Made by a program: the position numbers and the translations under genes. This document shows, piece after piece, positions 3,101-37,177 of a DNA stretch of 64,000 nucleotides. Below the pieces are notes generated by a model. It had not been told where the DNA came from, ran no database searches, and was given only the letters and a program-made list of their open reading frames with translations. Position 1 is the first letter of the stretch; each line of letters begins with the position of its first letter. Source of the stretch: a virus (Duplodnaviria; Heunggongvirae; Uroviricota; Caudoviricetes); IMG/VR virus record IMGVR_UViG_2713896899_000007, positions 1 through 64,000 of that record. The stretch is one strand, 5' to 3'.

Positions 3101-3671
3101 GTGAGGAAGCCGCAGCGGATGCACTTTGAGACGCTTGAGAGGCTTTTTCTCCAGCGGTATTGGCGCTTTCTGCTGCTGCGGCAGCACTGGCCGCCGCCTC
3201 ACGAGCTTTGTCGCCAGCAGCGTCAATCGCGTCGGTGTTATTTTTATACCACTCAACGTTTTCGTTGTGCTCGTTGACGATCTGCATTAGCGGCTTAACG
3301 GTCACTTCTGTACCGTCTTCACGCTCGATTGTCACCTCATCCAGAGCAGTCAACCAACTGCGCATGGACTTGGAATCAGCCGACATACGCGACATTAGCG
3401 CAGTAAAGCGCGCGCTAAACTGTGTTAAGTCGCCTTCATAGGTCGTAATGATTCGGCACGGAACTTCAGACTGAGTTTCGCCGGTATAAGGTTCTGAGAG
3501 AACAATATTCGTATCGCTTGTTACGCGCTTGATCTCATACAGCTTATTGTCGGGGCCAATGACGATCATCCCCGGCAACACACCATTAGCTGTTACGTTC
3601 CAGGCTGTCCCAACCCCAACCAGAGTATTGCTACCCTGTGTAAATGTGATAGTACCTTCCCTGTACCACAT
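144..3671 (-). CDS. side tail fibre protein (Stf-like), 1175 aa
   Basis: Ala/Ser-rich low-complexity segment with SETNA...ATPKAVK motifs typical of lambdoid Stf; seven ~40-aa repeats NAATATKLQTARTIGGVSFNGTANINLPGVN (phage tail fibre repeat type). Confidence 0.85.
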   Translation of the reverse strand: MWYREGTITFTQGSNTLVGVGTAWNVTANGVLPGMIVIGPDNKLYEIKRVTSDTNIVLSEPYTGETQSEVPCRIITTYEGDLTQFSARFTALMSRMSADSKSMRSWLTALDEVTIEREDGTEVTVKPLMQIVNEHNENVEWYKNNTDAIDAAGDKAREAAASAAAAAESANTAGEKASQASQSASAAASSQSAASASATAAKKSETNAEAAKEAAAESASVASTKASEAATSASSASASKDAAKASETNASSSANAAASSATEAANSSKAAKTSETNAKASETAAEQSASSANSSKSAAEASASAASASADSASSSATAAGRSAESASSSATTATTKATEATSQATAAKNSASAAKTSETNAKASEDNAASSKTAAAESASSASASATSASASKDEATKQASAAKGSASTASTKATEAAGSATAASQSKTAAESAATRAEAAADRAEEIAGAVAMEDASLTTKGVVKLSSATDSTSESLAATPKAVKAANDNANSRLAKNQNGADIPGKDTFTKNIGAGRAFGGSVSTTAGNWTTAQFVEWLDSQGAFNHPYWMCKGSWSYGNNKIITDTGCGDIHLAGAVIEVMGIKSAMTIRVTTPTTSSGGGTANAQFTYINHGTDYSPGWRRDYNTKYKPTPSDIGALSTSGGTVSGPLSVTGGLTGSLNGNASTATKLQTARTIGGVAFDGSANINLPGVNTAGNQSTTGNAATATKLQTARTIGGVSFNGTANIDLPGVNKAGNQSTTGNAATATKLQTARTIGGVSFDGTANINLPGVNAAGNQNTTGNAATATKLQTARTINGVSFNGSANISIPTITSRGRVTALTGTTQGAATGLQMYEAYNNGYPSTYGNVLHLKGATAVGEGELFIGWSGTSGAHAPVHVRSRRDTDTSSWSEWAQVYTSKDSIPGVNATGNQNTTGNAATATKLQTARTIGGVSFNGTANINLPGVNIAGNQNTTGNAASATKLQTARTIGGVSFNGTANINLPGVNTTGNQNTTGNAATATKLQTARKIAGVAFDGSADITLTAANLNAYTKTEVTNLLSSYVKSSSLPSMTVRTSSVSGGDMGMSLSTFISHLKSNGAFSKSYWIGFGDAMGFNAGSINNITGFGAVELAESIIEVFNLPNGDYTIRLTTSHKADYGGVTNAILVYHYRSNRSPSGQWLKFAGTVGATSN
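560..1700 (-). repeat. tandem ~120-bp coding repeats inside stf (two blocks, 4+3 copies)
   Basis: near-identical DNA units recur about every 120 bp, matching the ATKLQTAR protein repeats. Confidence 0.6.
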
Positions 3672-3763
3672 GTTGAATATGCTCCTTGATTTGGCGGGCT
3701 ATCCTTGCCCGCCATTAAGTAAGTACATACTTATTTTTACCGATGTAAATATTTTTTTCTACA

Positions 3764-6700
3764 TTACAGAAGGCCAATTCTTACTCGTAGGACGTTGTTA
3801 TCGTCATAAACGTCAATCCGCTGACCATTTATGACCAGTCGCCCATTACCTCCGCTATTACCGTTGATCTCAAGCGTTCCATTTTTGCCGAACCGCCATC
3901 CAGATCTACCGCTAACAAAATTGGTAGATTGCAGATCGCCTACTTTTGCATTGGTGATTGTGCCATCCTTGATATACGCACCATTCATATAGGCGATACT
4001 GTTTTCTATAACAAATGGCGTGGTGATCTTCCCGTTAACAGAGTTGACCAAACCAAATCTGTCCGCCTGCACCAAAAACTGAGAAAGACCGGTGGTGTCG
4101 ATACCAAGCGCAATACCGGCAACATACTTCTGCCCTCCGCTCGTTGAAGTCTCCATTTTCAACGTCCACGCGGTTGAGACTTTTTTGTTGGTATCAGCAA
4201 TGGCCGTTGCCTGCTGTTGAATTGTCGCGGTATTTCCATCCACCTCTGCTTTCAGAGTATCGATTCGCCCACTCAGAGCATTATCTGCCTGCGTTCTCGC
4301 TGTCGTTTCAGTTGTTACCGCCGCGGAAATGTTGGCTGCCGTTTGAGACTCTAAGTTTGTGATTTGAGTCGCCAGTGCAGCATCTTGCTCTGTACGCGTT
4401 TTCGTTTCGGTTGCTACAGCCGCTTTAATATCCTCTTTGTATTGAGAGGTCAGCTTGGTGATCTGAGACGACAACGCCGAGTCAGCATCAGTTCGAGCCT
4501 GCGTTTCAACTGCAACGGCCGCACTAATATCTTTCGCTGTCTGTGCTTTTAAACTTGAAACCTCTTTTGTTAAAGCGGTATCACCATCAGCACGAGCCGT
4601 TGTTTCTCTGGCAAGAGATGCCTCGAGATCATTAGCTTTTGCTGTAAGAGACGTAATCTGAGTGGACAATGCACTATCGGCATCAGTCCTTGCCTTTGTC
4701 TCTACAGCAACCGCTGCGGCAATATCAGTTCCGGTCTGTGCTCGCAGGCTGTTAATTTCTCGTGAGAGCGCCTGGTCAGCACTTGCCCTGGCCTCCTGCT
4801 CCTGAGTGATGGCAGCGGATATATCACCGTCAACCTTTGACTGAAGCTGGTTTATTTGTTTGGCTAATGCAGAGTCCCCGCTTGCTCGAGCCTCCTGCTC
4901 ACTACGTATTGCAGCAGAAATATCATCATCAACCTTTGCCTGAAGTTGGGTGATCTGGCTTGCCAGAGCCGAATCTTCCGTTGCTCGGGCTTCTTGCTCT
5001 TCCTTAATAGCTGCGACGATATCGTTGCTTACTTTCGACTCAAGCTGAGTGATCTGTGTCGTCAGAGCTTCATCGGCAGATGTACGAGCCTCCTGCTCTG
5101 TACTAATCGCCGCGCTGATATCTCCTTCAAACTTAGATTGCAGCTGAGTGACACGCTTTGCCAACGCTTCATCGCCATCGGCACGAGCGGTGGACTCTTC
5201 CAGAATACTGGCCTTAATGTCTTCGCCAATTTCTACGCGAATTTCCTCAACCTTCGTGGCCATTGCAGACATATCATCAGCAAAGGTTTTCTGTGTTGTT
5301 GCGATCTTCGCGTTATTGACCATCTGCTTGTGCTGGTCTTCATCTTGACGAAGAGCCAGGTCAATATTTGTTTTGGCTAACGCCTCAATGTTCGTAGTCA
5401 GTTCTGCACTGGCACGATCGACCTCTGCAACCGTCTTTTTCATTTCTTCAACGGCAGCGGAGCTTTCCTCTACCGTTGACTGCAACACTTCCAGTTGTTT
5501 AGCGTTTGCAGCATCGCCTTCAACACGAGCCTCGCTTTCCTTAGCAATAAGAGCTGCTGCTTCATCTCTTGCAGCCTTTATTGCCTCGACTGTATTAGCG
5601 AGAGCTTTATCGTGTTCAGATACGGTGTTTTCGATTTCAACAATTGCAGCATCAGTAGCATCAATTTTTTCAAACGCTTCATTGACCTTGTCGATCGTTG
5701 CCGAAACCTCACCTTTAAGCTCGGTTTGTGCGTTCTCCAAAGCATCGCTACGCTCGTTGAATTTTATTTCAAAATCCGCGAGGTTATCGCTGAACTGCTT
5801 ATCTAATTCAGCTATATCTTCCTTAACGTCGTTTACCGACCCCTCCAAAGATTCGACGCTCTGGTTGATATGCTCATTTAACTCGTCAACTGCTTCTTGA
5901 GAGGCTTTGCTGTTGATGTCCTCAAGCAGAGCCTGACCAAGCTCGGAAGATGTAATTTTGCCAGCCAGGAACGACAGTACATCGCGAGTTGTCGCCTCTG
6001 TACCCAAGTTTGAGTTCGGAGGGCTTAACATACCTCGCTTGTTCGATGCTCGAACCCAGTAATACCACGTTTCGCTATCCCCAAGACCAGCATGTGTAAA
6101 GGTGGTGCTTGCAGACTCTGCGATCAGTTTCGCCGTATCCAGATTGTTGGTCTGGGATGCGTAAACATTAATGTGATCAAGGTCTACCGAATCTGGATTA
6201 ACCCAATTCAGTATCACATTACGATAGTCTCCAACGGCCGTTAATGACGTTGGTGCATCCGGCGGTGTCATTGTGCCCAGCACCTGATAAACGGTACTGA
6301 TAATTTCTGTTTTTTTACCGTTGAATGAAACCGCATACAGTTGGAAGTCGTAGCGTCCATTCTCCGCGACATTAACGATTTCGTATTGCTCTTCGGTTAC
6401 ACGCGCCGATTGCCAGTTCGATACATTGTTTTCATCAGAACGTCGCCAACTGATCCAATACTCTGGAGATTTCCCTTCCCATGTTGCAGTCAGTTTTACT
6501 GACAGGTTGCCCGGGCTTGAGAGGTAAGTCCCTTCAGTGATTTGCAAATTAGACGGCTTGGAGTAAGTCGGGTCCAATACCGTCGTATTCTGCGGGATAA
6601 GCGTTGCACCATTGTCGATCGCCTCATATTTAGACGGATTGTTTTCAACAGCGGTGATGTCAAAGCTACCCGACGTTTCCCCCTGAGCGATGTTAACGAT

Positions 6701-26503: not shown

Positions 26504-27394
26504 TTATGCCGGTAAAGCAATTTCTAACGGTTTATCCAAAGGTTGTTTGTCGAATGCCAGCAGTGGCAGCGTGTCAGGCAGTCGACGACCAAAGTCAGGG
26601 TTTCGATACACACCATACAACGGAGACGTAAAGCTCAGGTTGTGAATGTCCTTGAGCAGCTTCACAATGCTGGCCTCGTCCACCAGACTGTCGGCAATGT
26701 CCTGAATCGTCGTGCCACGATTCCGCCCAGCTTTTGCCAGGGAACTGTTCTTGTGGTAGTCCGCCACCAGATCACGCAGTGCACGGCGACGACGAGACTC
26801 GCTCATTGCGAACAACTCTTTGACGATCGCCTCGTTATCACCCGGGTCAGAACGGAAATGGCGCTGGAATACACGCAGTGCACTTTCATAGCTCTTCGGT
26901 CGCTCAGGGCGGATGAACTTAAACCCCGCTTTCATGGCGAAGGGATTGTATTTGCTCATCGAGGACTGGATCTCAATGATTGGCCGGTCATGCATCCTGC
27001 TAACCAGGTTAATCATTCGATAAGAGACGCCTACGCCACGATACTGAGTATCCACAACTGAGCGACTGATCACCGCAAAGTTGTTATTCACGTACCGACC
27101 CCAGTACTGGTTAGCCACGGTGGTATTAGTGGTTGGTTTCAACTTAGGAAACATGCGGTGGCGAGGTGCCAACAGTAGTTTCGGGTAAGCCATAACCACG
27201 ACGCCCACCAGACGGTCATCAAGTTCGCAGCGATAGTAAGTTGGCGCGAAAGGTTTGCCGTCTGTTTTGTAGTGAAGCGACTTAAGAGCGTGCCAGTCCT
27301 CTACAGTTCCCTTTGTAACAGTCATTCGCTCCAGAAAGTCCAGATGACGCGGAAACTCTTCAGGGCGGTAGCGTTTAATGATGATGTCCGTCAT
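26504..27394 (-). CDS. GNAT-like acyltransferase-fold protein with extra C-terminal domain (tentative)
   Basis: segment VISRSVVDTQYRGVGVS...FAMKAGFKFI resembles GNAT motifs; start overlaps ATPase stop. Confidence 0.4.
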   Translation of the reverse strand: MTDIIIKRYRPEEFPRHLDFLERMTVTKGTVEDWHALKSLHYKTDGKPFAPTYYRCELDDRLVGVVVMAYPKLLLAPRHRMFPKLKPTTNTTVANQYWGRYVNNNFAVISRSVVDTQYRGVGVSYRMINLVSRMHDRPIIEIQSSMSKYNPFAMKAGFKFIRPERPKSYESALRVFQRHFRSDPGDNEAIVKELFAMSESRRRRALRDLVADYHKNSSLAKAGRNRGTTIQDIADSLVDEASIVKLLKDIHNLSFTSPLYGVYRNPDFGRRLPDTLPLLAFDKQPLDKPLEIALPA

Positions 27395-28056
27395 GAATGG
27401 ACCTCATCGTGACTACCATTGTGATATTCCACCTTCACGCGTTCTTTGTAGTGCTTGGTGATCTGCATATCCGGGCGCAGCGCGTTCTTCAGGTCTTCGT
27501 GAGTCGTCGCCACCATTACCGTCGCACCAACCTTTCGAGCGGCACGCTGGAGGTTAGACGCCACAACCTGAGCGGTTACACGGTCGAGAACAGCGCCGAA
27601 CTCGTCAGCAGCCCACACTTTAGCGTCTGACTCAATCAGTTTGGCAATCTTGAGACGATATTTCTGGCCGTCTGACATTTCAGAAGGCTTGCGAACAAAC
27701 AGATATGCATCGTTCAGACCAGCCATAGATAACAACCCAAGCGCATCACTGGTCGTTTTGCCCAACTGATCGATGACGTTAACCTCATTATCGAAGGTAA
27801 AATCATCGATGGAGGCTACAGACAGCCCTTCATCCTTCATCTGTCGTTGCAACTCGCGCAGCACAACGGATTTGCCGGAACCGGATTGGCCGGTGATGTA
27901 CACCACATCGCCCTGCTTCACTTCCAGCTCCAGATTGTCGTAAAGCGTCCACTCTTTTTCGTCCAGGCCAAGCCCGAACGACTCAGCGATTTCCAATGTG
28001 CGCGTGGTTTTATTTACGCGTGTCTGAAACGATACGTTGATGATGTATTTGCTCAT
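27391..28056 (-). CDS. soluble ABC-type ATPase
   Basis: Walker A GQSGSGKS, signature LSDGQKYRL-like, Walker B AADEFGAVLD, H-loop; no membrane domain. Confidence 0.7.
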   Translation of the reverse strand: MSKYIINVSFQTRVNKTTRTLEIAESFGLGLDEKEWTLYDNLELEVKQGDVVYITGQSGSGKSVVLRELQRQMKDEGLSVASIDDFTFDNEVNVIDQLGKTTSDALGLLSMAGLNDAYLFVRKPSEMSDGQKYRLKIAKLIESDAKVWAADEFGAVLDRVTAQVVASNLQRAARKVGATVMVATTHEDLKNALRPDMQITKHYKERVKVEYHNGSHDEVHS

Positions 28057-28721
28057 GCAGCCATCTCCCCGGAAGAGATCTTCTCCGCATATGCCACAAA
28101 TGCGTCTACCCCGCTTTCTCCCGTCATTTCTTCCATGTGGGCAAGCAAATCACCAACAACAATGGCAGAGCCAGCAGGGAGCGTTTTAAAGCCCAATACG
28201 TCGACAACACGTACTTCTTCCGCTGCAACTTCACGACTGATCTCGGTGTGTTCATCCTTCTGTCGTTTAGTTTCTTCGCCAAGATCGATAACTAGCGAGT
28301 CGGTGTCCATTTCTTCTGTCATACTGCCAACGAGAACATTCAACTCACGCTCTTCAAAGCCGAAAACCTCGATATCGTCCAGAACAAGCGACTCAAGCTC
28401 TTTCTGTAGCTTAATTGCATCGTAATCAATGCTGGCAAGTCGGTTATCTTCAAGGCGCTTCGCACGAACCTCGTCATCACTGAGATCATCGCGAACAATA
28501 ACCGGTACGCGCTCAAGTCCAGCAAAAATTGCAGCCTCACGGCGGCCGTGGCCAGTAATAATTACGTCGTTCTTATCGACCGTAATTGGCTGGTCAAATC
28601 CGCGCTTTTTAATGGCTGCGGCTAGATCTCGGATCTGCTGTTCATCATGCTTTTTGGCATTCATCTCATAGGGAATAAGATCTGCCGGGTCGCGATATAC
28701 GATTTCAAACTTTTTGGTCAT
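28053..28721 (-). CDS. ParB/Srx-fold (ParB-like nuclease domain) protein
   Basis: ITGHGRREAAIFAGLERVPVIV motif; start moved to MTKKFEIVY, which has an AAGGAG RBS. Confidence 0.7.
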   Translation of the reverse strand: MTKKFEIVYRDPADLIPYEMNAKKHDEQQIRDLAAAIKKRGFDQPITVDKNDVIITGHGRREAAIFAGLERVPVIVRDDLSDDEVRAKRLEDNRLASIDYDAIKLQKELESLVLDDIEVFGFEERELNVLVGSMTEEMDTDSLVIDLGEETKRQKDEHTEISREVAAEEVRVVDVLGFKTLPAGSAIVVGDLLAHMEEMTGESGVDAFVAYAEKISSGEMAA

Positions 28722-29401
28722 TACATACGCTCCTTGTAGTAGTCGACCAGCCACACCAGAGCCTCACCAGCGTTCTCCATTTCATTACCGGTGTTAATAG
28801 CCTGCTCTTTGATGATGTTTTTTATGGTTTCTGCAACACGATCTGACGCATCGAAAGTTACTTTGAAGCGCATGGTCTGATGTTCCGCACCCACACGTTC
28901 GGTTTTCTCCCGTTTGTCGGTATCGACAGGCTCATCACTACCACGAGACAACGCCTCCAGTGCTTCAAGGTCGATTGCCGCCTCTTTTGCTAAAACCATC
29001 GAGATTTCGTCGTCATACGGGGCGATTTCAGACAGTTGATAGTCAAGTTCTGACTGAATTTCTTCAATGAAGCGTTGCAATGCGATTTGGTCGTCTTCAC
29101 CGTATCGCTCGTTGTCCACCAGTGACATCTGTTTTGCCACGACATCGCTAATTTTGCCCACAGAAAGCACCGGAACCGTTGAAATTCCTTGCTCAATAGC
29201 AGCACGCCAGCGATGTTCGCCGCCGAGGATTTCAAAAAATCCATCTTCAAGTTCACGAGCCAAAATTGGCTTAAAAAAGCCCAATTTTTCGATAGAACCT
29301 TTCAGTTTTTCAAAATTCTGCGCACCAACCGAATTGGTGTTCCAGGTATTCGGGCGAAGGTTGGCAACATCAACCTGCAAAATCGTGATTTTTACATCCA
29401 T
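28721..29401 (-). CDS. ParB/Srx-fold (ParB-like nuclease domain) protein
   Basis: GGEHRWRAAIEQGISTVPVLSV motif; track start is GTG, moved to next ATG (MDVKITIL). Confidence 0.7.
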   Translation of the reverse strand: MDVKITILQVDVANLRPNTWNTNSVGAQNFEKLKGSIEKLGFFKPILARELEDGFFEILGGEHRWRAAIEQGISTVPVLSVGKISDVVAKQMSLVDNERYGEDDQIALQRFIEEIQSELDYQLSEIAPYDDEISMVLAKEAAIDLEALEALSRGSDEPVDTDKREKTERVGAEHQTMRFKVTFDASDRVAETIKNIIKEQAINTGNEMENAGEALVWLVDYYKERM

Positions 29402-29483
29402 TTTATTGCTACAATCCACTAAGTAACTGCTTACTTATTATAATAGCCAAATAACATACAAAAGGCACTAAGGAAAGAGGTTT

Positions 29484-31043
29484 ATGACTGTTCGGATTGT
29501 ATCTAACGCAGTTAATGCGCTTATTTCTGGCGCAGATGACAAGGTAAAGCAACTGGTGCAGCAAATGTTGAGCTACGAAGTCGAGACTGGCGACTGGAAG
29601 GGCACAAGCACGATGTTCAACTGGAGTAAAAACTCGTTCCCTGCTGGCTTTGCCAAGCCTGTAGCGGCGAACTTGAACAAGGCGGGCATCAAATGTGTTC
29701 ATATCCGCAAAGACAAAGCCCCGGCGCTTGGTAAACCAAATCCGGCGGTTAACCCATTCCCATACAATCCTGATTATGCGTATCAGGATCAGACTGTGGA
29801 AACACTGGTTCGAGAGGGAATGATGATTGCGCAGATCGCTACTGGTGGCGGGAAATCTAACGTTGCCTGCAAAGCAGCTGCACGTATCGGTCGAATGACA
29901 TTATTTTTAACAACCCGCTCTGTTCTGATGTTTCAAATGGCCGAAAACTTCCAGAGATCCATCGACTACCGCGCCGAAAATGGCGAACCGTGGTTAAAAG
30001 ACCAAAAGGTTGGAGTCATTGGCTCGGGTGAGTTCCAGGTATCACGACATATCAACGTCGCTACAGTTCAAACTCTTGCAAGTTTCCTCGAAGAACCACC
30101 ACGCGATGCAACACCAGATAAGAAAAGCTACCACCTCAAACGTCGGGAGTTGGTGAAACGCTTCCTTTCAAGTGTCTCTCTTCTTATTCTGGAAGAGGCG
30201 CATGAGTCTTCAGGCTCAAATTTCTATGACATCGCCAGATTATGTGTGAACGCAGACTATCGTCTGGCGCTTACAGCCACGCCGTTCATGAAGGATTCGA
30301 CGGAAGCCAACATGCGCCTGATGGCGGTGGCCGGGCGAATTGAAATTAAAGTCACAGAAAAGTACCTGATTGATCGAGGCATTCTGGCAAAGCCGTACTT
30401 CCTTTATCATAAAGTTGCCTACAAACCAGACGAGGCCAGAATCAAGGCAGAACTTGCCAACAAACACCTCAATTTTAGAGTAGGTATGAGTACTGCCTAC
30501 CAAAAGGCTTATCAGTTGGGGATCGTGTATAATTTGGGACGTAACGAGGCCATTGTTCGCGAAGCATTGCTCTATAAGCAACATTCTCTCAATTGTATGA
30601 CTCTGGTTCGCCTTAAACGCCACGGGCAAATCCTGATGGAAATGATGAAAGAGTCCGGCCTTAGAGTTGACTTCATCTATGGGGAATCTAACCAGGCGAC
30701 AAGGCAAGCAAAGCTGAACAGTTTAGCGTCTGGAGAAATAGATGTTTTAATAGGCTCGACTATTCTGGATGTCGGTGTTGATGTGCCAAGCGTTGGTGCG
30801 GTCATTCTTGCTGGTGGTGGGAAAGCAGAAGTTGAAATGAGGCAGCGTGTCGGTCGTGGCTTACGAGCCAAGAAGAATCAGGCAAACGTGTGTTTTATCA
30901 CTGATTTCATTGACACTAGCAACAAATACCTGTTGTCTCACTCTTATGAGCGAAAACACATCATCGACACCACACCTGGCTTTGCAGAAGGTGTATTGCC
31001 TATTGATGGCGCATTCGATTTTGGAGTTCTGAAACGAGATTAG
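29484..31043 (+). CDS. superfamily-2 DEAH-type helicase
   Basis: motif I ATGGGKS, motif II LEEAHE, motif III LTATP, motif VI QRVGRGLR. Confidence 0.75.
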   Translation: MTVRIVSNAVNALISGADDKVKQLVQQMLSYEVETGDWKGTSTMFNWSKNSFPAGFAKPVAANLNKAGIKCVHIRKDKAPALGKPNPAVNPFPYNPDYAYQDQTVETLVREGMMIAQIATGGGKSNVACKAAARIGRMTLFLTTRSVLMFQMAENFQRSIDYRAENGEPWLKDQKVGVIGSGEFQVSRHINVATVQTLASFLEEPPRDATPDKKSYHLKRRELVKRFLSSVSLLILEEAHESSGSNFYDIARLCVNADYRLALTATPFMKDSTEANMRLMAVAGRIEIKVTEKYLIDRGILAKPYFLYHKVAYKPDEARIKAELANKHLNFRVGMSTAYQKAYQLGIVYNLGRNEAIVREALLYKQHSLNCMTLVRLKRHGQILMEMMKESGLRVDFIYGESNQATRQAKLNSLASGEIDVLIGSTILDVGVDVPSVGAVILAGGGKAEVEMRQRVGRGLRAKKNQANVCFITDFIDTSNKYLLSHSYERKHIIDTTPGFAEGVLPIDGAFDFGVLKRD

Positions 31044-31045
31044 TT

Positions 31046-31324
31046 ATGAGCGAAAAGAAAACAACTTATTGCCAAGTGGCATTGTCTGATAAGGCCAATG
31101 AAAAACTTGGAAAATTTCAAATAAAACTCAAAGAGAAAAAAATCAAGATGTCTAAGGCTGAAGTTATCAATGCCATTCTGGAGACGATGACTATGGCTGA
31201 ATTTGACAAAGTCACATCTGCCGTTGGGGTTTCCGCTAAGACGCGTGAGAAAATCATGCGCATCTATGAAAACTCCAATATGACAAAAAAAGATCTAGAG
31301 GAAATACTGAGCAGGTTGCCGTAA
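31046..31324 (+). CDS. hypothetical small protein
   Basis: 92-aa ORF coupled to helicase stop. Confidence 0.4.
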   Translation: MSEKKTTYCQVALSDKANEKLGKFQIKLKEKKIKMSKAEVINAILETMTMAEFDKVTSAVGVSAKTREKIMRIYENSNMTKKDLEEILSRLP

Positions 31325-31389
31325 CATTTCATATTTACCCCCTATCAACTAATTCTATGATGTGCTCACTTGTTAGAAAGGAGCACATC

Positions 31390-31956
31390 ATGAGTTGGTT
31401 AAAAGAATTATCATTTGTTGACACCACTGGCGCTAAGAAAAATCATTCTTTCTGGAAAGTCAGCGATCCTTCTGATTTTCTTGTTGGTGCTAATGCTGCT
31501 TTTGAATTGCTTAACTTTTATCAACGTTATCCTGAAATGAAACACAGTCCACTCCTGTACAGAATAACAAACGATATGAATAGGTCTGGTTTATTATCAA
31601 GTGAGTCAGCGAAAGGCTTTTTTAGCAAAATTACGCCACACATATCATTCGATGCAGCAAACGAAATTGATTGTCTATCCACGAAACCTCAAGAACAATT
31701 ATCTGTACCACCTGAGAAAAAACAAAGACGAATTGCCAGCATTGAAAATATATCGAAAGAGCTTCGCACAACAACGTTGAGGCTGCTGAACTTTCTTACG
31801 CTACTTAATTGGATAGATGATCAAACATTGATTCCATCAACCGATGCGTTGGATAACAGAGTACTTAGGCTGAACAAAAAATCGCAATTTGGTTTTGTGT
31901 TCACCAAAAAAGGTGAAGATTTAATCAAAAGAAAATATAGATTATTGAATGATTAA
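31390..31956 (+). CDS. hypothetical protein
   Basis: start moved to MSWLKEL, which has an AAAGGAG RBS. Confidence 0.4.
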   Translation: MSWLKELSFVDTTGAKKNHSFWKVSDPSDFLVGANAAFELLNFYQRYPEMKHSPLLYRITNDMNRSGLLSSESAKGFFSKITPHISFDAANEIDCLSTKPQEQLSVPPEKKQRRIASIENISKELRTTTLRLLNFLTLLNWIDDQTLIPSTDALDNRVLRLNKKSQFGFVFTKKGEDLIKRKYRLLND

Positions 31957-32101
31957 TAGTCTACATGCAGGTGTATGAGAGCACCTGCATGTGATATTCA
32001 TCACATTTTTTGAAGTACACACCTCCGGCTGAAAAAATTTCTTGATTGGCAGAACGATATTTGTAGGCTTTTCAATTGATAACTAAGGTCGGATACTGTA
32101 G

Positions 32102-32590
32102 ATGAGTATTTCCATAAACAAAATAATTAACTCTTTACGACATAAAATATCACATGGAAAAGATGTTCTTTTTAAAGACAAATATTATCTATTCAACCTA
32201 GAGTTGTACAAATGCACAAAATTTTATATCACTCGGAACCGTAAATATTCAGCTTCAATCACAAAAGACATGAAGAAAATCTCTTCAGAAGAGTACTTCA
32301 TATCACATATTTATATCTACCCATTTAAATTAGAACCATTAAATATAATTCTTCCAACAATAAAAGGGGTTGAACTTGAAGGTTATACTTTAAGCTCTAA
32401 CTTTAATGATATGGGTGTACAAAAACCAGGGACAAGGTCATACTACGCCTACAAAGTAAAATGCAATAACTACAACGCACTTAACATGCTAATCAGCAAA
32501 CTTGAAACGGAGATAGTCGAAGGAAATCTAAATGATGATCATGAAAAATTAGAACAAATAGAAAAACTTAGAAAGTGTGATGTTAAATAA
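32102..32590 (+). CDS. hypothetical protein (very AT-rich gene)
   Basis: 162-aa ORF, Lys/Asn/Ile/Tyr-rich. Confidence 0.4.
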   Translation: MSISINKIINSLRHKISHGKDVLFKDKYYLFNLELYKCTKFYITRNRKYSASITKDMKKISSEEYFISHIYIYPFKLEPLNIILPTIKGVELEGYTLSSNFNDMGVQKPGTRSYYAYKVKCNNYNALNMLISKLETEIVEGNLNDDHEKLEQIEKLRKCDVK

Positions 32591-33205
32591 TTGGATTATC
32601 ATGATATGAAAATGAAAATTTCGTTACTCCTTGCTTGTATATGCCTCCCGGCGTTTTCCGCCAACGCATTATCAGATTTCGTCTCTGACATGCAAAAAAC
32701 GTACAGCATGTTTACCTCCGAAGACGTAGTAGAATACAAATCACGAGGTCTGAATCAGCCAGTTTGGTTCAGATTCTCAGACAACGCAGAAGAAACAATA
32801 CTTAATGGAGGAAAAGAAAGATTACGGTTGCAAATTAACGGGACCGCTGTACCAGAAAACGTTAATGTAAACTCTGACGAAGCCATGAAGCCATCTGGAA
32901 TTGTTTTAGAAGTTCAAGACGGCACACTTTACTGTGATGAAATGGCTACAACAGGTTGCCAAGTAAACATTAGGGTTGGCAATGAAGAGCCTATCGTTAC
33001 TTACGCCAAGGCTGAAGGGAATACAAGTGGAAAGGTATTGTTTATCGATGAAAATATCTCAAAACGTATCGTTCGTGACATACAGAAAACAGCTAACTCT
33101 AAATCCGTCGATAAAAAAATCTATGTTGAGGTTCCCTTCTTTGTCGTTGGTAACAAAGAATTTAAATTTGGGTTGCTGAAAACACCTCTAAGAGTATCAG
33201 AATGA
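32591..33205 (+). CDS. exported protein with N-terminal signal peptide
   Basis: MKMKISLLLACICLPAFSANA signal-like N-terminus; coupled to neighbours. Confidence 0.45.
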   Translation: MDYHDMKMKISLLLACICLPAFSANALSDFVSDMQKTYSMFTSEDVVEYKSRGLNQPVWFRFSDNAEETILNGGKERLRLQINGTAVPENVNVNSDEAMKPSGIVLEVQDGTLYCDEMATTGCQVNIRVGNEEPIVTYAKAEGNTSGKVLFIDENISKRIVRDIQKTANSKSVDKKIYVEVPFFVVGNKEFKFGLLKTPLRVSE

Positions 33206-33726
33206 GAACATTGGACATCACCTACGGCATACCGGCTGAAGTCTGGCCGCGAGACTACGAACATGCTGAAAACATACTTATGTTCTGGCGGAAGAACAAC
33301 ATTCCTGTAAGAGTCACGCTTGAAGACGGTCAGGTGTTTTGCATGTACGTTCAGGGGACAATGCCTTCCCGCAATAAGCTAGATTTATGCCCGCTTCCAT
33401 ATGATAAAGAAAATCGTATAAGACTCCCACTTGAGCGCATTAGCACAATTGAATCAGGTGTAATCGATGGCATTGCTCGCGAGTTCAAAGGTAGGCTAAC
33501 AATACATCCAGACTATGTTGACAATCAGCCATCACGCCGTGACTTTTTTGCGATATGTCGCAAGGCTTATCAAAACGACCAATCTATAAGGGTCTACATG
33601 GCAGACGGTCGTGAAATTGAAGGGGTGTCAAGAGGCGTTGATGCTTGCCAGGTCACTCTTAAGTTAGAAGACGGCAGAAAAATACTTGTTTTCTTCGATT
33701 GGGTTGAACGAATCCTTCCATTTTAA
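33202..33726 (+). CDS. hypothetical protein (two beta-rich repeat halves)
   Basis: 174-aa ORF overlapping upstream stop. Confidence 0.4.
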   Translation: MRTLDITYGIPAEVWPRDYEHAENILMFWRKNNIPVRVTLEDGQVFCMYVQGTMPSRNKLDLCPLPYDKENRIRLPLERISTIESGVIDGIAREFKGRLTIHPDYVDNQPSRRDFFAICRKAYQNDQSIRVYMADGREIEGVSRGVDACQVTLKLEDGRKILVFFDWVERILPF

Positions 33727-33739
33727 ATCTATAAGGGTA

Positions 33740-33768
33740 ATAACCGGCTAAGCCCGGTTATTATTTTA
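33740..33768 (+). terminator. rho-independent terminator-like hairpin
   Basis: AACCGG-CTAAG-CCCGGTT stem-loop followed by T-rich run. Confidence 0.5.
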
Positions 33769-34012
33769 CATGCCATTCATTTAAAACTCTTTCAATGCCA
33801 CTCTGTATAAATATATAAGGTTAAAGGCCCGAATTGATTATTTATTTAGGGAACACCTTCGACGATCTCGCTTTTATTTCTAGGACTTTCACCCCTGCAA
33901 AAAATTTAAAAAAAACACTTGCAATCTTTTTTCACGTATCGATAATTGAACTCGTCGAAAGCGAGCTGGCTAACGACAGTAAAAAATAAATTCATTTTAA
34001 TTTTTCGTAAGG

Positions 34013-34672
34013 ATGTCCATCATGGCTAACATTATCATTTCTAAAAAATCCATCATTGAAGCTGCTTCCATTGTATCCGATGAACTGCGCGAAAAAGCAG
34101 ATCTGGCAACTCAAACATATAACGAACATTATAAAAATGGTACGCACACTAAAGCAGACAAAGCAAATATGCAAGCTGCGACCACTAAACTTGCTTACTT
34201 CATCAACAACGTCGTAAACGCAGTAGAAGACGAAAAATTATGCTCTGTTTTCTACTATGCGATTAAAGCAAGCAAACAAGCGCCAGAAGTATTTTTCCGT
34301 GATGCTATGACTAATAGTTATTCACTGGAAAAACTGGTTTATCTGGTTAAATCCATTAAAGCTGGTAAATGCGTTTATTCCGTCGCTGATATGTCAGGAT
34401 CTCGTGTATTCGCTTTAATCGATATGATTAACGACGAGATCGACACGTTCACCAATGGCGCTGTTTTCGATTTAATGAATGAAGCTAAAAAAGCGTGCGA
34501 AATTAAATTGGACGCTGGCTATACTCAAGCCAACCAGTTGATCAATCTTTGCGAACGTCTCGGACTTGTTGAAAAAGTCAAAGGAGCTGGGAGCGCCAAA
34601 GCTGGTACGCAGCAATATCGCTTCATTAAAAATGATTTCTACAATTATTTAGCTGATGCTTTTAAAGCGTAA
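34013..34672 (+). CDS. hypothetical protein
   Basis: 219-aa ORF with TTGCAA-16-GATAAT promoter-like sequence upstream. Confidence 0.45.
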   Translation: MSIMANIIISKKSIIEAASIVSDELREKADLATQTYNEHYKNGTHTKADKANMQAATTKLAYFINNVVNAVEDEKLCSVFYYAIKASKQAPEVFFRDAMTNSYSLEKLVYLVKSIKAGKCVYSVADMSGSRVFALIDMINDEIDTFTNGAVFDLMNEAKKACEIKLDAGYTQANQLINLCERLGLVEKVKGAGSAKAGTQQYRFIKNDFYNYLADAFKA

Positions 34673-34683
34673 TTAATGAAATC

Positions 34684-34705
34684 AAGCGCCCACTATGGGC
34701 GCTTT
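34684..34705 (+). terminator. hairpin GCGCCCA-CTA-TGGGCGC (copy 1)
   Basis: perfect 7-bp stem, 3-nt loop, after the 219-aa gene. Confidence 0.5.
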
Positions 34706-34721
34706 AAAGGAGCTTTCAAAA

Positions 34722-34925
34722 ATGGTCAGCTATGACAAGATCCGCGCGGAATATCGCGCAAAGTATCGCGCTTATAAACTGGAATTAATCGACGATTTGA
34801 TCGCGCAACGCGACCAATTAAATTTTACGTTTTCTGATTTGCTTAACAGTAAACGAGATTGTAAGCGTAAGCGTGAATATTTACGTTTAAGCGCATTAAT
34901 CGGAAAACTTCAAAATTCTATTTAA
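34722..34925 (+). CDS. hypothetical small protein
   Basis: start moved to MVSYDKIR, which has an AAAGGAG RBS. Confidence 0.35.
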   Translation: MVSYDKIRAEYRAKYRAYKLELIDDLIAQRDQLNFTFSDLLNSKRDCKRKREYLRLSALIGKLQNSI

Positions 34926-34945
34926 TTTTTTTAAGGAGCTTAATC

Positions 34946-35173
34946 ATGGTTATTTTCATCTCTGGCGTAAATATCAATAATCATACTCTTGTTTATGATA
35001 TTGCTGGTTTAGCTGGATATGCTCTAAGTTCTGAAGTGGTTGATGAAACAACGTTTAAAATAAACATCAATGACGTAGAACATAGAGCGCGCGTAGGAAT
35101 CAATGAAGCTGATGTTACTTTAATGCTTCAAGAATTTTTAAACGCTGGCTTTAATATTCACTTAGAAAAATAA
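34946..35173 (+). CDS. hypothetical small protein
   Basis: 75-aa ORF with AAGGAG RBS. Confidence 0.4.
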   Translation: MVIFISGVNINNHTLVYDIAGLAGYALSSEVVDETTFKININDVEHRARVGINEADVTLMLQEFLNAGFNIHLEK

Positions 35174-35180
35174 AAACAAT

Positions 35181-35320
35181 AGCGCCCACTATGGGCGCTT
35201 TTTTCGTTTACAATACACCCACCATAACGCGCCAATAATGGCGCTTTTTTATTGTCTTTAACTCACTCCAACAACATAAAAATAAGCGCCAAAATAACGC
35301 CATAGACGCGCTTTTATATC
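35181..35320 (+). terminator. stack of three to four terminator-like hairpins
   Basis: GCGCCCACTATGGGCGC+T6, GCGCCAATAATGGCGC+T6, further GC hairpin with T-run. Confidence 0.55.
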
Positions 35321-35399
35321 CTTGTCAGTACATACCCATTACTTAACACATTAACGCGCTTAAAATGCGTTATATTGCGCTATAACGTATGGCTAATCA

Positions 35400-35785
35400 T
35401 TAATTTTTATTCTTGCTATGTGATCCGCGTTTAATTGTCGGCGCGGATCGGCATTTTGTTTTGTTCCGTATCCGCTCGCGTATTATGTGCGCGTGATTTT
35501 TCACATAATCACACCACTTAATCACGTATGTGATTATGCTACGAAAGAAATCTGGATGTCTCAGGCGACGAAAGTCATCATAATTTTCCCCGCTCACCTG
35601 TCCGACAACCGCTGGTTGGATTCCACCAGCTTCCCGATGTTTTTTCTACATAAAGGCGAATGCAGCCGTTTCCCGAAAAAATCCTGGCCGTTTCCCGTCG
35701 GCTCATGAATGCGTTCCTTGCCGTTTCTGAAAATTTCCCTGCGGCAGCTGGTGGCTATAGAGAAAGGGCCGTTTCTGGCCCTCTT
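35400..35785. promoter_or_regulatory. candidate origin/partition region: palindromes, DnaA-box-like 9-mers and iteron-like direct repeats (cluster 1)
   Basis: GATCCGCG...CGCGGATC palindrome; TGTGATTAT-like boxes; four or five GCCGTTTC(C/T) repeats spaced ~22-35 bp. Confidence 0.4.
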
Positions 35786-35790
35786 CTCAG

Positions 35791-36273
35791 TTACACGCCA
35801 TCAAGGATGTGGATGCGGTTGCTTGCGTATACATTCAGCATAAAGTTAGCGCAAAACAGTTTCCATGTATCAACGCCAGCGGTATACGTAATGTTTTTGC
35901 ATTTAATTGCATTGTTGGCGATCTGCGTAGCCAGTGATATGGCTTCATGGTCAGTAAAGCCGTATGACGTTTGGGTCTTCATCCAGACAGAAATCTGCGT
36001 AGCGAACTCAATCAGCTTGGACTGGCAGAATCGCCCGGAGCGCACCGGAAAGACGAACGTTCCGAATCCAGAATTTACCACATACGCTTTCTCAAATACC
36101 CGAGAGTAACGACGATTGCCAATGATGTCGCGTGCAATAATGCATTTTTCTTGTTCTGACAGTTCTACCGTCTCATTGTGACGCCAGGCACCAAGTACTC
36201 GTTTTTCAATGTCAGAGAACGTTACAGCGATATTGCCATGTGCGGGTGCGTTTACAGTAGCGATAAAATTCAT
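35791..36273 (-). CDS. hypothetical protein
   Basis: 160-aa ORF with AAGGAA RBS and motif B upstream. Confidence 0.45.
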   Translation of the reverse strand: MNFIATVNAPAHGNIAVTFSDIEKRVLGAWRHNETVELSEQEKCIIARDIIGNRRYSRVFEKAYVVNSGFGTFVFPVRSGRFCQSKLIEFATQISVWMKTQTSYGFTDHEAISLATQIANNAIKCKNITYTAGVDTWKLFCANFMLNVYASNRIHILDGV

Positions 36274-36478
36274 GATTAATTCCTTATCGTAAATAACAAA
36301 TTGTTTTCTTGTTGGCGTTAATTATCGTTGTACGAATAAGGCGTCAAAGTGGAAAGTTGCGGTAGCCGGACGGGAACAGGTGGGTTTGTCGGTTGCCTGG
36401 AGGTAAGAGGTTGGTGTTTTTAGCCTGCGGGGAACAGGATGGTCATTTAAGGCCACCAGCGTTAACTGGTGGCGTTTG

Positions 36479-37177
36479 TCATGCTGGAATCATATCTAAT
36501 TGAAAAGATTCCATTATATATGTTGGTTCATCGATGTAGTCCTTCAGCCTATTGTCAAATGACTCAAGCGGATTGTATGGCGGATGATGCCGCTCCGAGT
36601 ATTCATTTAAAAGATGCCCCATTATCAGTTCGATACCCATCTCTACTCCTGAAACTCCGAACCATACATTGTGCGTTAGTTGCTGGGCGTCTGTATCCAG
36701 TACGCGAACGCCATCAACAAGATTTATTAGATTCCTGTGGTTTTCGTGTACTGTAACCTCTCCGCTGGTTAAGTCTATTTCAGCGAGAAAATATGGTCTT
36801 TTGCTTCCGTCGGACTTTTTGAAATGACCGTCATAAGCGATAGCAAACCACGCTTTACTAAAGTCCTTGTTGGCGTAAGTGGTGCACATACAACTAGGAT
36901 AATCATCAATGTTAAACCAATCAGGAAACGGATCATCTTTAGACGAGCCAGCAAAATCATCAGCTAGTTCGTAGCTAATGTCTGGGTTGTACTTGCTGAC
37001 AAAATCATCTACATCCTCTACATCCTCAACACCTTTCCAAACTTTACATCTCTCCGACCAAAAGAATCTCGCAATATCCGAAATGACTGGGAAACGTTTT
37101 TCAATTGAATTTATCAACTCTGCATGTTCTTTAAGAGATTTACGCTTGTTGATAAGCTTCTGAAGATGCGTACTCAT
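36479..37177 (-). CDS. hypothetical acidic protein
   Basis: 232-aa ORF with motif B upstream. Confidence 0.45.
   Translation of the reverse strand: MSTHLQKLINKRKSLKEHAELINSIEKRFPVISDIARFFWSERCKVWKGVEDVEDVDDFVSKYNPDISYELADDFAGSSKDDPFPDWFNIDDYPSCMCTTYANKDFSKAWFAIAYDGHFKKSDGSKRPYFLAEIDLTSGEVTVHENHRNLINLVDGVRVLDTDAQQLTHNVWFGVSGVEMGIELIMGHLLNEYSERHHPPYNPLESFDNRLKDYIDEPTYIMESFQLDMIPA

Follow-up and report, generated by a model that had tools for sequence, protein, structure and literature searches.

The question raised by this locus is whether the genes that follow a helicase gene in a tailed-phage genome form one acquired island or belong to the conserved framework of the element. The DNA analyzed is a stretch of 64,000 nucleotides (nt) of a virus of the Caudoviricetes (IMG/VR record IMGVR_UViG_2713896899_000007, positions 1 to 64,000; hereafter, the window). 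Most large open reading frames (ORFs) of the window lie on the minus strand; a plus-strand block opens with an SF2 helicase, which is followed by eight further genes (g1 to g8). A preliminary description of this DNA rightly recorded the eight genes and their orientation, and took them for a single accessory island of prophage-moron type. Each of the eight ORFs matches a PHROG family from end to end (E ≤ 5e-40), and all eight are therefore regarded as real, conserved genes.

The products were compared by tblastn with ten annotated loci, nine of them SSU5-type (including Yersinia pestis pFra/pMT1 and Klebsiella elements). The helicase (70–100% identity), g5, and g6 are encoded in all nine SSU5-type loci, including Y. 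pestis pFra and Klebsiella. In a distant Klebsiella lineage the protein identity of g5 is 36% and that of g6 is 48%, and it is only there that g1 is absent (present in 8 of 9). By contrast, among the ten loci g2 is found in three Escherichia coli elements, g3 is restricted to the plasmid type of the window itself, g4 occurs in a subset, and g7 and g8 alternate. Because the helicase, g5, and g6 are constant, while g2, g3, g4, g7, and g8 come and go between syntenic relatives, the plus-strand genes make up a conserved scaffold that carries variable inserts rather than one accessory island; g5 and g6 show no such variation, and g1 barely any. We hold this scaffold-plus-slots description with high confidence. 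It also divides the three-gene operon at 32102–33726, which had been read as cargo throughout: the third gene of that operon, g5, encodes a backbone regulator of the FljA family.

The element itself is an SSU5-like phage-plasmid. Over 7 kb (29400–36400), the window shares 94–97% nucleotide identity with the E. coli SSU5-group phages CMS-2020a, Cyrano, and PhiR41_1, and about 79% with Salmonella phage SSU5, and it is syntenic with SSU5-like phages and plasmids. The 110-kb plasmid p009_B of E. coli strain 9 is 100% identical over 31957–33210. This segment, whole or in part, occurs in 130 of 5,426 complete E. coli genomes and is plasmid-borne every time, with no chromosomal copy among 131 matches. 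Because all E. coli matches are plasmid-borne, the window represents a phage-plasmid rather than an integrated prophage. The block is laid out as follows.

29484–31043, plus strand: SF2 helicase (DEAD/ResIII/Helicase_C in Pfam); backbone, first gene of the plus-strand block, outside the cargo
31046–31324, plus strand: g1, 92 amino acids (aa), phrog_1466; near-backbone
31390–31956, plus strand: g2, 188 aa, phrog_13473; variable
31964–32011, plus strand: two-part terminator after g2, with hairpin CATGCAGGTG-N8-CACCTGCATG (31964–31991), small hairpin GTGAT-ATTC-ATCAC (31991–32004), and T6
32021–32069, plus strand: promoter-like module before the cargo, with ACCTCCGGCTGAAAAAA (32021–32037), −35-like TTGATT (32042–32047), a 16-nt spacer, and TG plus −10-like TAGGCT (32064–32069)
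32102–32590, plus strand: g3, 162 aa, cytoplasmic, phrog_25050; cargo, without recognizable domain
32606–33205, plus strand: g4, 199 aa, Sec-exported; cargo, with signal peptide at 32606–32668 and predicted cleavage at ANA|LSD
33202–33726, plus strand: g5, 174 aa, FljA family (Pfam PF03614, Flag1_repress); backbone, its start overlapping the g4 stop
33738–33767, plus strand: intrinsic terminator of the g3-g4-g5 unit, TAATAACCGG-CTAAGC-CCGGTTATTA followed by TTTT
33811–33889, no strand assigned: three non-coding blocks, ATATATAAGG (33811–33820), ATTTATTTAGGGAACACCTTCGA (33840–33862), and TTTTATTTCTAGGACTTT (33872–33889)
33919–33946, plus strand: promoter of the g6 operon, TTGCAA, 16-nt spacer, GATAAT
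34022–34672, plus strand: g6, 216 aa (219 if the start is at 34013), phrog_1513; backbone by tblastn conservation
34685–34703, plus strand: first hairpin copy, AGCGCCCACTATGGGCGCT; left boundary of the small-gene cassette, followed by the g7 ribosome-binding site, without a T-run
34722–34925, plus strand: g7, 67 aa, phrog_6145 (PHROG match); optional small gene
34946–35173, plus strand: g8, 75 aa, phrog_1585 (PHROG match); optional small gene
35181–35250, plus strand: second hairpin copy (35181–35199) with T6, and a second terminator, GCGCCAATAATGGCGC with T6 (35229–35250); end of the plus-strand block

Our working model, its proposed workings included, is that this region is a helicase-proximal regulatory block of an SSU5-type phage-plasmid, built as a conserved scaffold with three cargo slots; taken as a whole, we consider it fairly probable. 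The scaffold comprises the helicase, g1, g5 with its terminator, the DNA blocks with the strong g6 promoter, g6, and the terminal hairpin terminator. Slot A, between g1 and g5, is filled here by g2 and the terminator after it, the putative cargo promoter, and two cargo genes, g3 (cytoplasmic) and g4 (Sec-exported). Slot C is framed by two copies of one hairpin and contains g7 and g8.

The occupants of slot A were counted in 68 loci that contain the whole helicase-to-g5 interval, drawn from viral contigs picked by a conserved DNA motif. Of the 68 loci, 34 have a member of a 140/145-aa lipoprotein family, 16 a member of the g4 family, seven a 266-aa lipoprotein, five a 117-aa secreted protein, and seven no recognized envelope protein (the counts sum to 69 because one locus has the 117-aa secreted protein as well as the 266-aa lipoprotein). 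About 90% of the sampled relatives thus have a lipoprotein or secreted protein in slot A. SSU5 and pFra carry the 140-aa lipoprotein (weak DUF2846 match), Klebsiella carries the related 145-aa lipoprotein on the opposite strand, and Cyrano and PhiR41_1 carry the 266-aa lipoprotein, accompanied in PhiR41_1 by the 117-aa secreted protein. Homology of g4 with the SSU5 140-aa lipoprotein or the PhiR41 117-aa secreted protein was considered and rejected, as none was found. In the sampled loci, a g3-type gene never occurs without g2 and an exported protein (g4 or the 117-aa secreted protein).

Wherever g2 is found, it precedes the terminator and the promoter-like module. The large hairpin of the terminator (31964–31991) has a folding energy of −22.9 kcal/mol (z = −4.9); in Citrobacter L091, this hairpin is kept with a different sequence, and the small hairpin and T-run are conserved. 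The module at 32021–32069, the conserved promoter-like sequence of the three-gene unit, had been overlooked in the preliminary description. Its blocks are invariant and its spacer is variable in three cassettes whose g3-type proteins are 24–57% identical, and it precedes at least four different cargoes among 12 distinct sequence contexts. Because a promoter would be expected to show conserved hexamers on either side of a spacer of variable sequence, we infer that the module is the cargo promoter. At the other end, the terminator at 33738–33767 (−15.5 kcal/mol) retains its hairpin in every lineage, although stem bases differ in the distant Kp15 type. The cargo pair g3-g4 is accordingly placed between a promoter and a terminator of its own on sequence criteria only. 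Within the unit, the genes are closely coupled, as had been reported: g4 and g5 overlap by ATGA at 33202–33205, and the end of g3 (32590) is 15–21 nt from g4.

Downstream of the cargo promoter, the leader in some relatives can fold a hairpin over the ribosome-binding site, for example CCTCCGAAGAAATTCGGAGG in Cyrano; such sites were seen in L001 (about 5690–5720), L091 (about 4975–5000), and L082. These leader hairpins hint at a possible translational control of the cargo.

The whole stretch 32102–33726 had been described as markedly AT-rich. This holds for g3, at 29.4% G+C, whereas g4 (39.7%) is only mildly different from the window (46.6%) and g5 stands at 44.8%. Close homologues of g3 form three clusters only, all of 161–162 aa. 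In the Citrobacter homologue (57% amino-acid identity), G+C is 28.4% and synonymous sites are saturated. Because its AT-richness is kept at this distance, the low G+C of g3 is best read as an old, stable trait and not as a mark of recent import. Purifying selection acts on both cargo genes (pN 0.27–0.29 vs. pS 0.79–0.84; for g3 in comparison with Citrobacter, 0.27 vs. 0.79). A Citrobacter plasmid retains the order g2-g3-g4-g5. Remote relatives of g3 occupy the same slot in other lineages. A shorter RefSeq/PGAP call for g3 (107 aa, start 32270; 4814–5134 in locus L004) was rejected; homologues at 58–98% identity are full-length (161–162 aa) and retain the same start context, ATGAGTATTTC.

The signal peptide reported for g4, the middle gene of the unit, is borne out: MKMKISLLLACICLPAFSANA|LSD, with its A-x-A cleavage site, is conserved in homologues, as are two cysteines of the mature part. 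The mature protein (about 178 aa) is predicted to be periplasmic and rich in beta structure, and contains the conserved pair of cysteines. A lipoprotein assignment was rejected: Cys11 is too near the N-terminus, fails the position rules for a lipobox, and is absent from homologues. Because this early cysteine is unconserved, g4 is taken to be a Sec-exported soluble protein. It thereby falls into the class of exported small proteins of temperate phages, to which superinfection-exclusion proteins belong. The gene also occurs without g2.

Both cargo genes have a long history at this position. The most distant relative of g4, P0020 (208 aa), lies in the same interval of a 110-kb element (the L095 lineage), which also encodes remote homologues of g1 (E = 4e-13), g2 (E = 1e-14), and g3 (E = 3e-6); distant homologues of g1 to g6 are all located within this one interval. 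The cargo families are thus best regarded as old residents of the slot across the SSU5 supergroup and not as sporadic imports.

A second insertion point, slot B, separates the g5 terminator from the conserved g6 promoter region. The window has no insert at this site; the Klebsiella plasmid pLH99-d-B carries two additional genes (L008, 6830–8183), and the L095 lineage a 103-aa secreted protein (3391–3702).

Beyond g5, the 290-nt interval before g6 is in places more conserved than the flanking proteins, which are 36–48% identical in the distant lineage. Its three blocks are spaced by about 30–34 nt. In a sample of 71 distinct sequences, among which overall identity falls as low as 55%, the g6 promoter and blocks ATATATAAGG and TTTTATTTCTAGGACTTT vary little or not at all; block ATTTATTTAGGGAACACCTTCGA served as the search pattern for this sample, so that its invariance there is by construction, and it is also invariant in independently chosen loci. 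No consensus RNA structure and no covariation were detected in the interval, and a small RNA between g5 and g6 was dropped as a candidate for this reason. Because no consensus RNA structure is present, the blocks are probably protein-binding DNA, that is, candidate sites for a DNA-binding protein. In Rfam searches, no family reached threshold in the window, and 30900–36400 gave chance-level matches only.

The sequence TTGCAA-16-GATAAT had been proposed as the promoter of the island. It is present, at 33919–33946, where CTTG and TCGATAAT are invariant across lineages, and it belongs to g6-g7-g8 rather than to the three-gene unit. The product of g6 is a putative DNA-binding protein, modeled as a long helical hairpin with a C-terminal winged-helix-like domain; fold comparison returned generic coiled-coil and winged-helix matches only, which are uninformative on function. 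Furthermore, g1 has a pattern that, judged by eye, may be of the ribbon-helix-helix type.

The small genes g7 and g8 are framed by two identical 21-nt hairpins, AGCGCCCACTATGGGCGCTTT, at 34685 and 35181 (−15.1 and −14.3 kcal/mol), a duplication for which the chance expectation is none. A hairpin of the form GCGCCCA-NNN-TGGGCGC flanks the small-gene cassette almost everywhere in 69 related loci. The arrangements are hairpin-g7-hairpin (22 loci), hairpin-g8-hairpin (16), and hairpin-g7-g8-hairpin (15); 10 further loci have one hairpin and lack a small gene. The copies were located by their stem sequence, which makes the stem identical in every copy recovered; the loop CTA is sometimes inverted to TAG, and the T-run is found on the last copy only. 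The two identical hairpins are therefore cassette boundaries, of which only the outer one is a canonical terminator. Deletion between the direct hairpin copies would yield the single-hairpin form. Both terminators of 35181–35250 are conserved across lineages. A stack of hairpin terminators had been described as closing the island: the two identical hairpins and further terminator-like ones (35229 and 35421) do exist, with the first copy lying internally, between g6 and g7. For g7, the label "MIT family metal ion transporter (CorA)" in PHROGs and in the SSU5 record was rejected as impossible for a protein of 67 aa, and looks like a propagated misannotation.

How such a block might work can be outlined from this arrangement. 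In the plasmid state, the cargo promoter would transcribe g3-g4-g5 as one unit, ending at 33738. At the periplasm or outer membrane, g4 would act as a lysogenic-conversion factor, most likely by blocking the entry of related phages; in other elements, the alternative lipoproteins of slot A would fill its place. Exclusion is the function we consider most likely for g4, since the slot is taken by one envelope protein or another, as mutually exclusive alternatives, in a temperate element of siphovirus type; it is proposed tentatively, as possible rather than probable. Like FljA, g5 would bind an mRNA leader and block translation, and g6 may act on the DNA blocks upstream of its own promoter.

Several observations weigh against this scheme. 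The slot A sample is redundant and was chosen by a DNA motif. The −10 element of the cargo promoter, TAGGCT, is weak, and a consensus scan did not call this promoter, which we attribute to that weakness. The occurrence of g4 without g3 in several plasmids implies that joint action of the two is not required. Searches of Pfam, NCBIfam, PADLOC, and PDB sequences gave no function for g3, g4, g6, g7, or g8: Pfam, NCBIfam, and PADLOC returned nothing worth reporting for the seven products other than g5, and NCBIfam had no match for g5 either; PADLOC-DB 2.0 gave no match for g1 to g6 or g8 and a chance-level match for g7 (E = 0.027); and PDB sequence searches with g3, g4, g5, g6, and a g3-family profile gave no match. 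The suggestion of a defence, exclusion, or virulence function thus found no match among known families, and the statement that the products are of unknown function needs correcting for g5, which belongs to a known family. Finally, the block is co-oriented with the replication helicase, and could therefore be expressed early in lytic growth and not in lysogeny.

This last point can be developed into an alternative in which the helicase promoter drives all of the plus-strand block as one early lytic or host-takeover operon that stays silent in the plasmid state, with g4 acting during infection, for example by remodeling the envelope or excluding other phages. The block is contiguous as well as co-oriented with the helicase, g1 starting 3 nt past the helicase stop, and read-through beyond g2 is plausible, since the g2 hairpin has only a weak second one with its T-run behind it. 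On the other hand, separate conserved promoter-like modules precede g3 and g6, and conserved terminators follow g2 and g5, which argues for independently controlled units; envelope-protein cargo is, in addition, more typical of lysogenic conversion. We consider an early lytic operon rather unlikely. A transcriptome of an SSU5-type element did not turn up in literature searches, which were aimed at FljA, at flagellin and motility, and at SSU5-type plasmids rather than at expression data.

A second alternative concerns g5, which matches PF03614 over residues 5–171 (profile positions 1–170 of 170; E = 5.4e-81; 270.9 bits against a cut-off of 24). By tblastn, g5 hits 831 plasmid records, 822 of them with at least 80% protein coverage; the records come from Klebsiella (341), Escherichia (229), Enterobacter (92), Yersinia (62), and Salmonella (60). 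It is conceivable that g5 is a working flagellin repressor that shuts off translation of host FliC, with g3 and g4 as unrelated passengers, in which case a lysogen could be non-motile, less visible to the immune system, or resistant to flagellotropic phages. E. coli, Salmonella, and Enterobacter hosts are flagellated, as probably is the E. coli host of the window element. The full-length family match is consistent with such a role, as are 27 invariant columns in a seven-sequence alignment of g5 with a genuine plasmid-borne FljA (L009, encoded directly after a flagellin gene), with which g5 has motifs such as DFF, G-x3-G, and DWV-RI in common. FljA blocks translation of fliC mRNA (PMC2652032, citing Bonifield & Hughes 2003, Yamamoto & Kutsukake 2006), and plasmid-carried FljA proteins do repress chromosomal fliC (PMC2652032).

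Against a flagellin repressor, g5 is only 35% identical to the genuine FljA, and its context differs from that of fljBA, in which fljA lies directly 3' of an alternative flagellin gene. A tblastn search with the FliC N-terminus found no flagellin in the window, none was seen beside g5 in any relative inspected (the upstream gene here is g4), and there is no hin-type switch next to g5. A fliC leader sequence gave chance-level matches only when compared with the window. Literature searches yielded nothing that ties SSU5, pHCM2, or pMT1 plasmids to motility, and nothing that links FljA to phage-plasmids, SSU5, pHCM2, or pMT1. Furthermore, Klebsiella and Y. pestis are classically non-motile hosts, and g5 is intact in the elements of both and under strong purifying selection (dN/dS about 0.10 between Klebsiella and Y. 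pestis elements). For this reason, the selected function of g5 is not solely the repression of fliC, and we judge a working flagellin repressor to be improbable. In our working model, the target of g5 is probably a transcript of the phage-plasmid or a general host transcript and not fliC only, because it must exist in Klebsiella and Y. pestis.

Features internal to g5 are suggestive of, without establishing, a protein of two Sm/Hfq-like halves. The Pfam family Hfq matches residues 123–165 at 18.8 bits, below the cut-off of 27 (E = 0.0012), and LSM matches the same residues at E = 0.03; the N- and C-terminal halves align to each other (E = 7e-4), and both align to the same segment of Hfq, the Sm1 region, with low probability (E = 0.005 and 0.014). 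A direct DNA repeat within g5, 279 nt apart (33305 and 33584), was also observed, and corresponds to the internal protein duplication (PVRVTLEDGQVF, SIRVYMADGREIEG). One speculative reading, to which we give little weight, is that g5 may be a tandem Sm-like RNA-binding translational regulator at the core of all SSU5-type phage-plasmids, Y. pestis pMT1 and the Klebsiella elements among them, with the interchangeable envelope proteins encoded upstream deciding superinfection by related phages. It would then control transcripts of the phage-plasmid (the cargo leader, the g6 operon, or the lysis-lysogeny switch) and not flagellin.

It is also imaginable that g3 and g4, one cytoplasmic and the other periplasmic, are the two partners of a novel anti-phage defence system or of a novel toxin-immunity pair. 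A g3 gene lies just upstream of the g4-family gene in 10 of the 16 sampled g4 loci, which adds to the constant company of g3-type genes noted above, to the purifying selection on both genes, and to their hot-spot location behind a dedicated promoter. We nevertheless consider such a pair very unlikely: neither protein has a catalytic or toxin motif, PADLOC, Pfam, and NCBIfam are without a match, several plasmids carry g4 without g3, and the g3-type partner of the 117-aa secreted protein is only 26% identical to g3 over 80 residues.

The view that all eight genes are one acquired prophage moron island, with the AT-rich operon a recent import for defence, exclusion, or virulence, can draw on the opposite strand of the eight genes to most of the genome, the low G+C of 31100–35300 (0.30–0.46), the promoter-like and terminator-like elements, and the PHROGs class of g7 ("moron, auxiliary metabolic gene and host takeover"), and is highly improbable, being for the most part refuted already by the conservation pattern (the helicase, g5, and g6 in every relative compared, even at 36–48% protein identity, and g1 in all but one), by the shared L095 interval of g1 to g6, by the age of the low G+C of g3, by the lack of a PADLOC match, and by the plasmid nature of the element. 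The moron architecture itself is retained in part: g2, g3-g4, g7, and g8 are patchy, g3-g4-g5 is bracketed by a promoter-like module and a terminator, g3 is deviant in composition, and slot A nearly always takes an envelope protein, all within a phage-plasmid and not a prophage. Overall, nearly all of the sequence features listed in the preliminary description are present, and about half of its interpretation holds.

Genes next to the block are partly constant and partly variable. The minus-strand cluster at 26504–29419, which diverges from the helicase, comprises two ParB_N genes, a gene for an ABC-type ATPase, and one for a 296-aa protein; in most SSU5-type loci for which the flank was retrieved, the ATPase gene and both ParB_N genes adjoin the helicase. 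These ParB_N proteins seem distinct from the P1-type partition proteins of the plasmid. A convergent 160-aa gene at 35791–36273 is found by tblastn in every SSU5-type locus. Between it and the plus-strand block, a 600-nt convergent intergenic region contains direct repeats, GCCGTTTCCCG / GCCGTTTCTG, at 35663–35697, 35720, and 35768. The first two copies lie inside a patch that is conserved across lineages, and the last belongs to a hairpin, GGGCC-N6-GGCCC, that probably terminates the minus-strand 160-aa gene. Farther on, a 232-aa minus-strand gene without a Pfam match (36479–37177) is found, among the ten annotated loci, in this plasmid only, and is probably further cargo just beyond the region studied.

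SSU5-type phage-plasmids, among them Y. pestis pMT1 and Salmonella Typhi pHCM2, are common and spread resistance genes, and this block is annotated almost entirely as hypothetical. The sequence of the locus is already public by the hundred, the annotation of the FljA-like gene dates to the SSU5 genome record, and no literature discussing the locus was found. Separating scaffold from cargo shows where such elements take up new genes, and the near-constant presence of an envelope protein in the cargo points to a role, open to testing, in exclusion between related phages. The g3-g4 cassette is, in itself, an ordinary example of phage hot-spot cargo. The lead of wider interest is that phage-plasmids of non-motile hosts keep an FljA-family protein among their core genes, where strong purifying selection implies a function of this family beyond flagellar phase variation.

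Four known systems bear comparison with the block. With FljA, the phase-1 flagellin repressor of Salmonella enterica and of E. coli flagellin islands, g5 shares a promoter-distal position behind a gene for an exported protein; it differs in its sequence, in having no adjacent flagellin gene or hin-type switch, and in being a phage-plasmid backbone gene that is also present in non-motile hosts. The morons of lambdoid prophages, described by Hendrix and colleagues, are extra genes with their own promoter and terminator between backbone genes. The g3-g4 pair is likewise patchy in syntenic relatives, flanked by a promoter-like module and a terminator, and deviant in composition in the case of g3. 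Unlike a moron, however, the pair has a putative promoter that is built into the scaffold and is used for various cargoes, its terminator follows the backbone gene g5, its cargo families appear to be old residents of the slot, and the host element is a plasmid. Phage envelope proteins that exclude superinfection include Llp of T5, Cor of phi80/N15, and Sp of T4. Similarly, g4 and its slot alternatives are small secreted proteins or lipoproteins of a siphovirus-type temperate element, and mutually exclusive; no sequence or fold likeness of g4 to Llp, Cor, or Sp was found. The fourth comparison is with SSU5, S. Typhi pHCM2, and Y. pestis pMT1/pFra, in which the order is as here: after two ParB_N genes comes the divergent helicase, then g1 and an envelope protein, then the FljA-like gene and g6, and last a small gene and the convergent 160-aa gene. 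SSU5 and pFra differ from the window in having the 140-aa lipoprotein in place of g2-g3-g4 and only one of g7 and g8.

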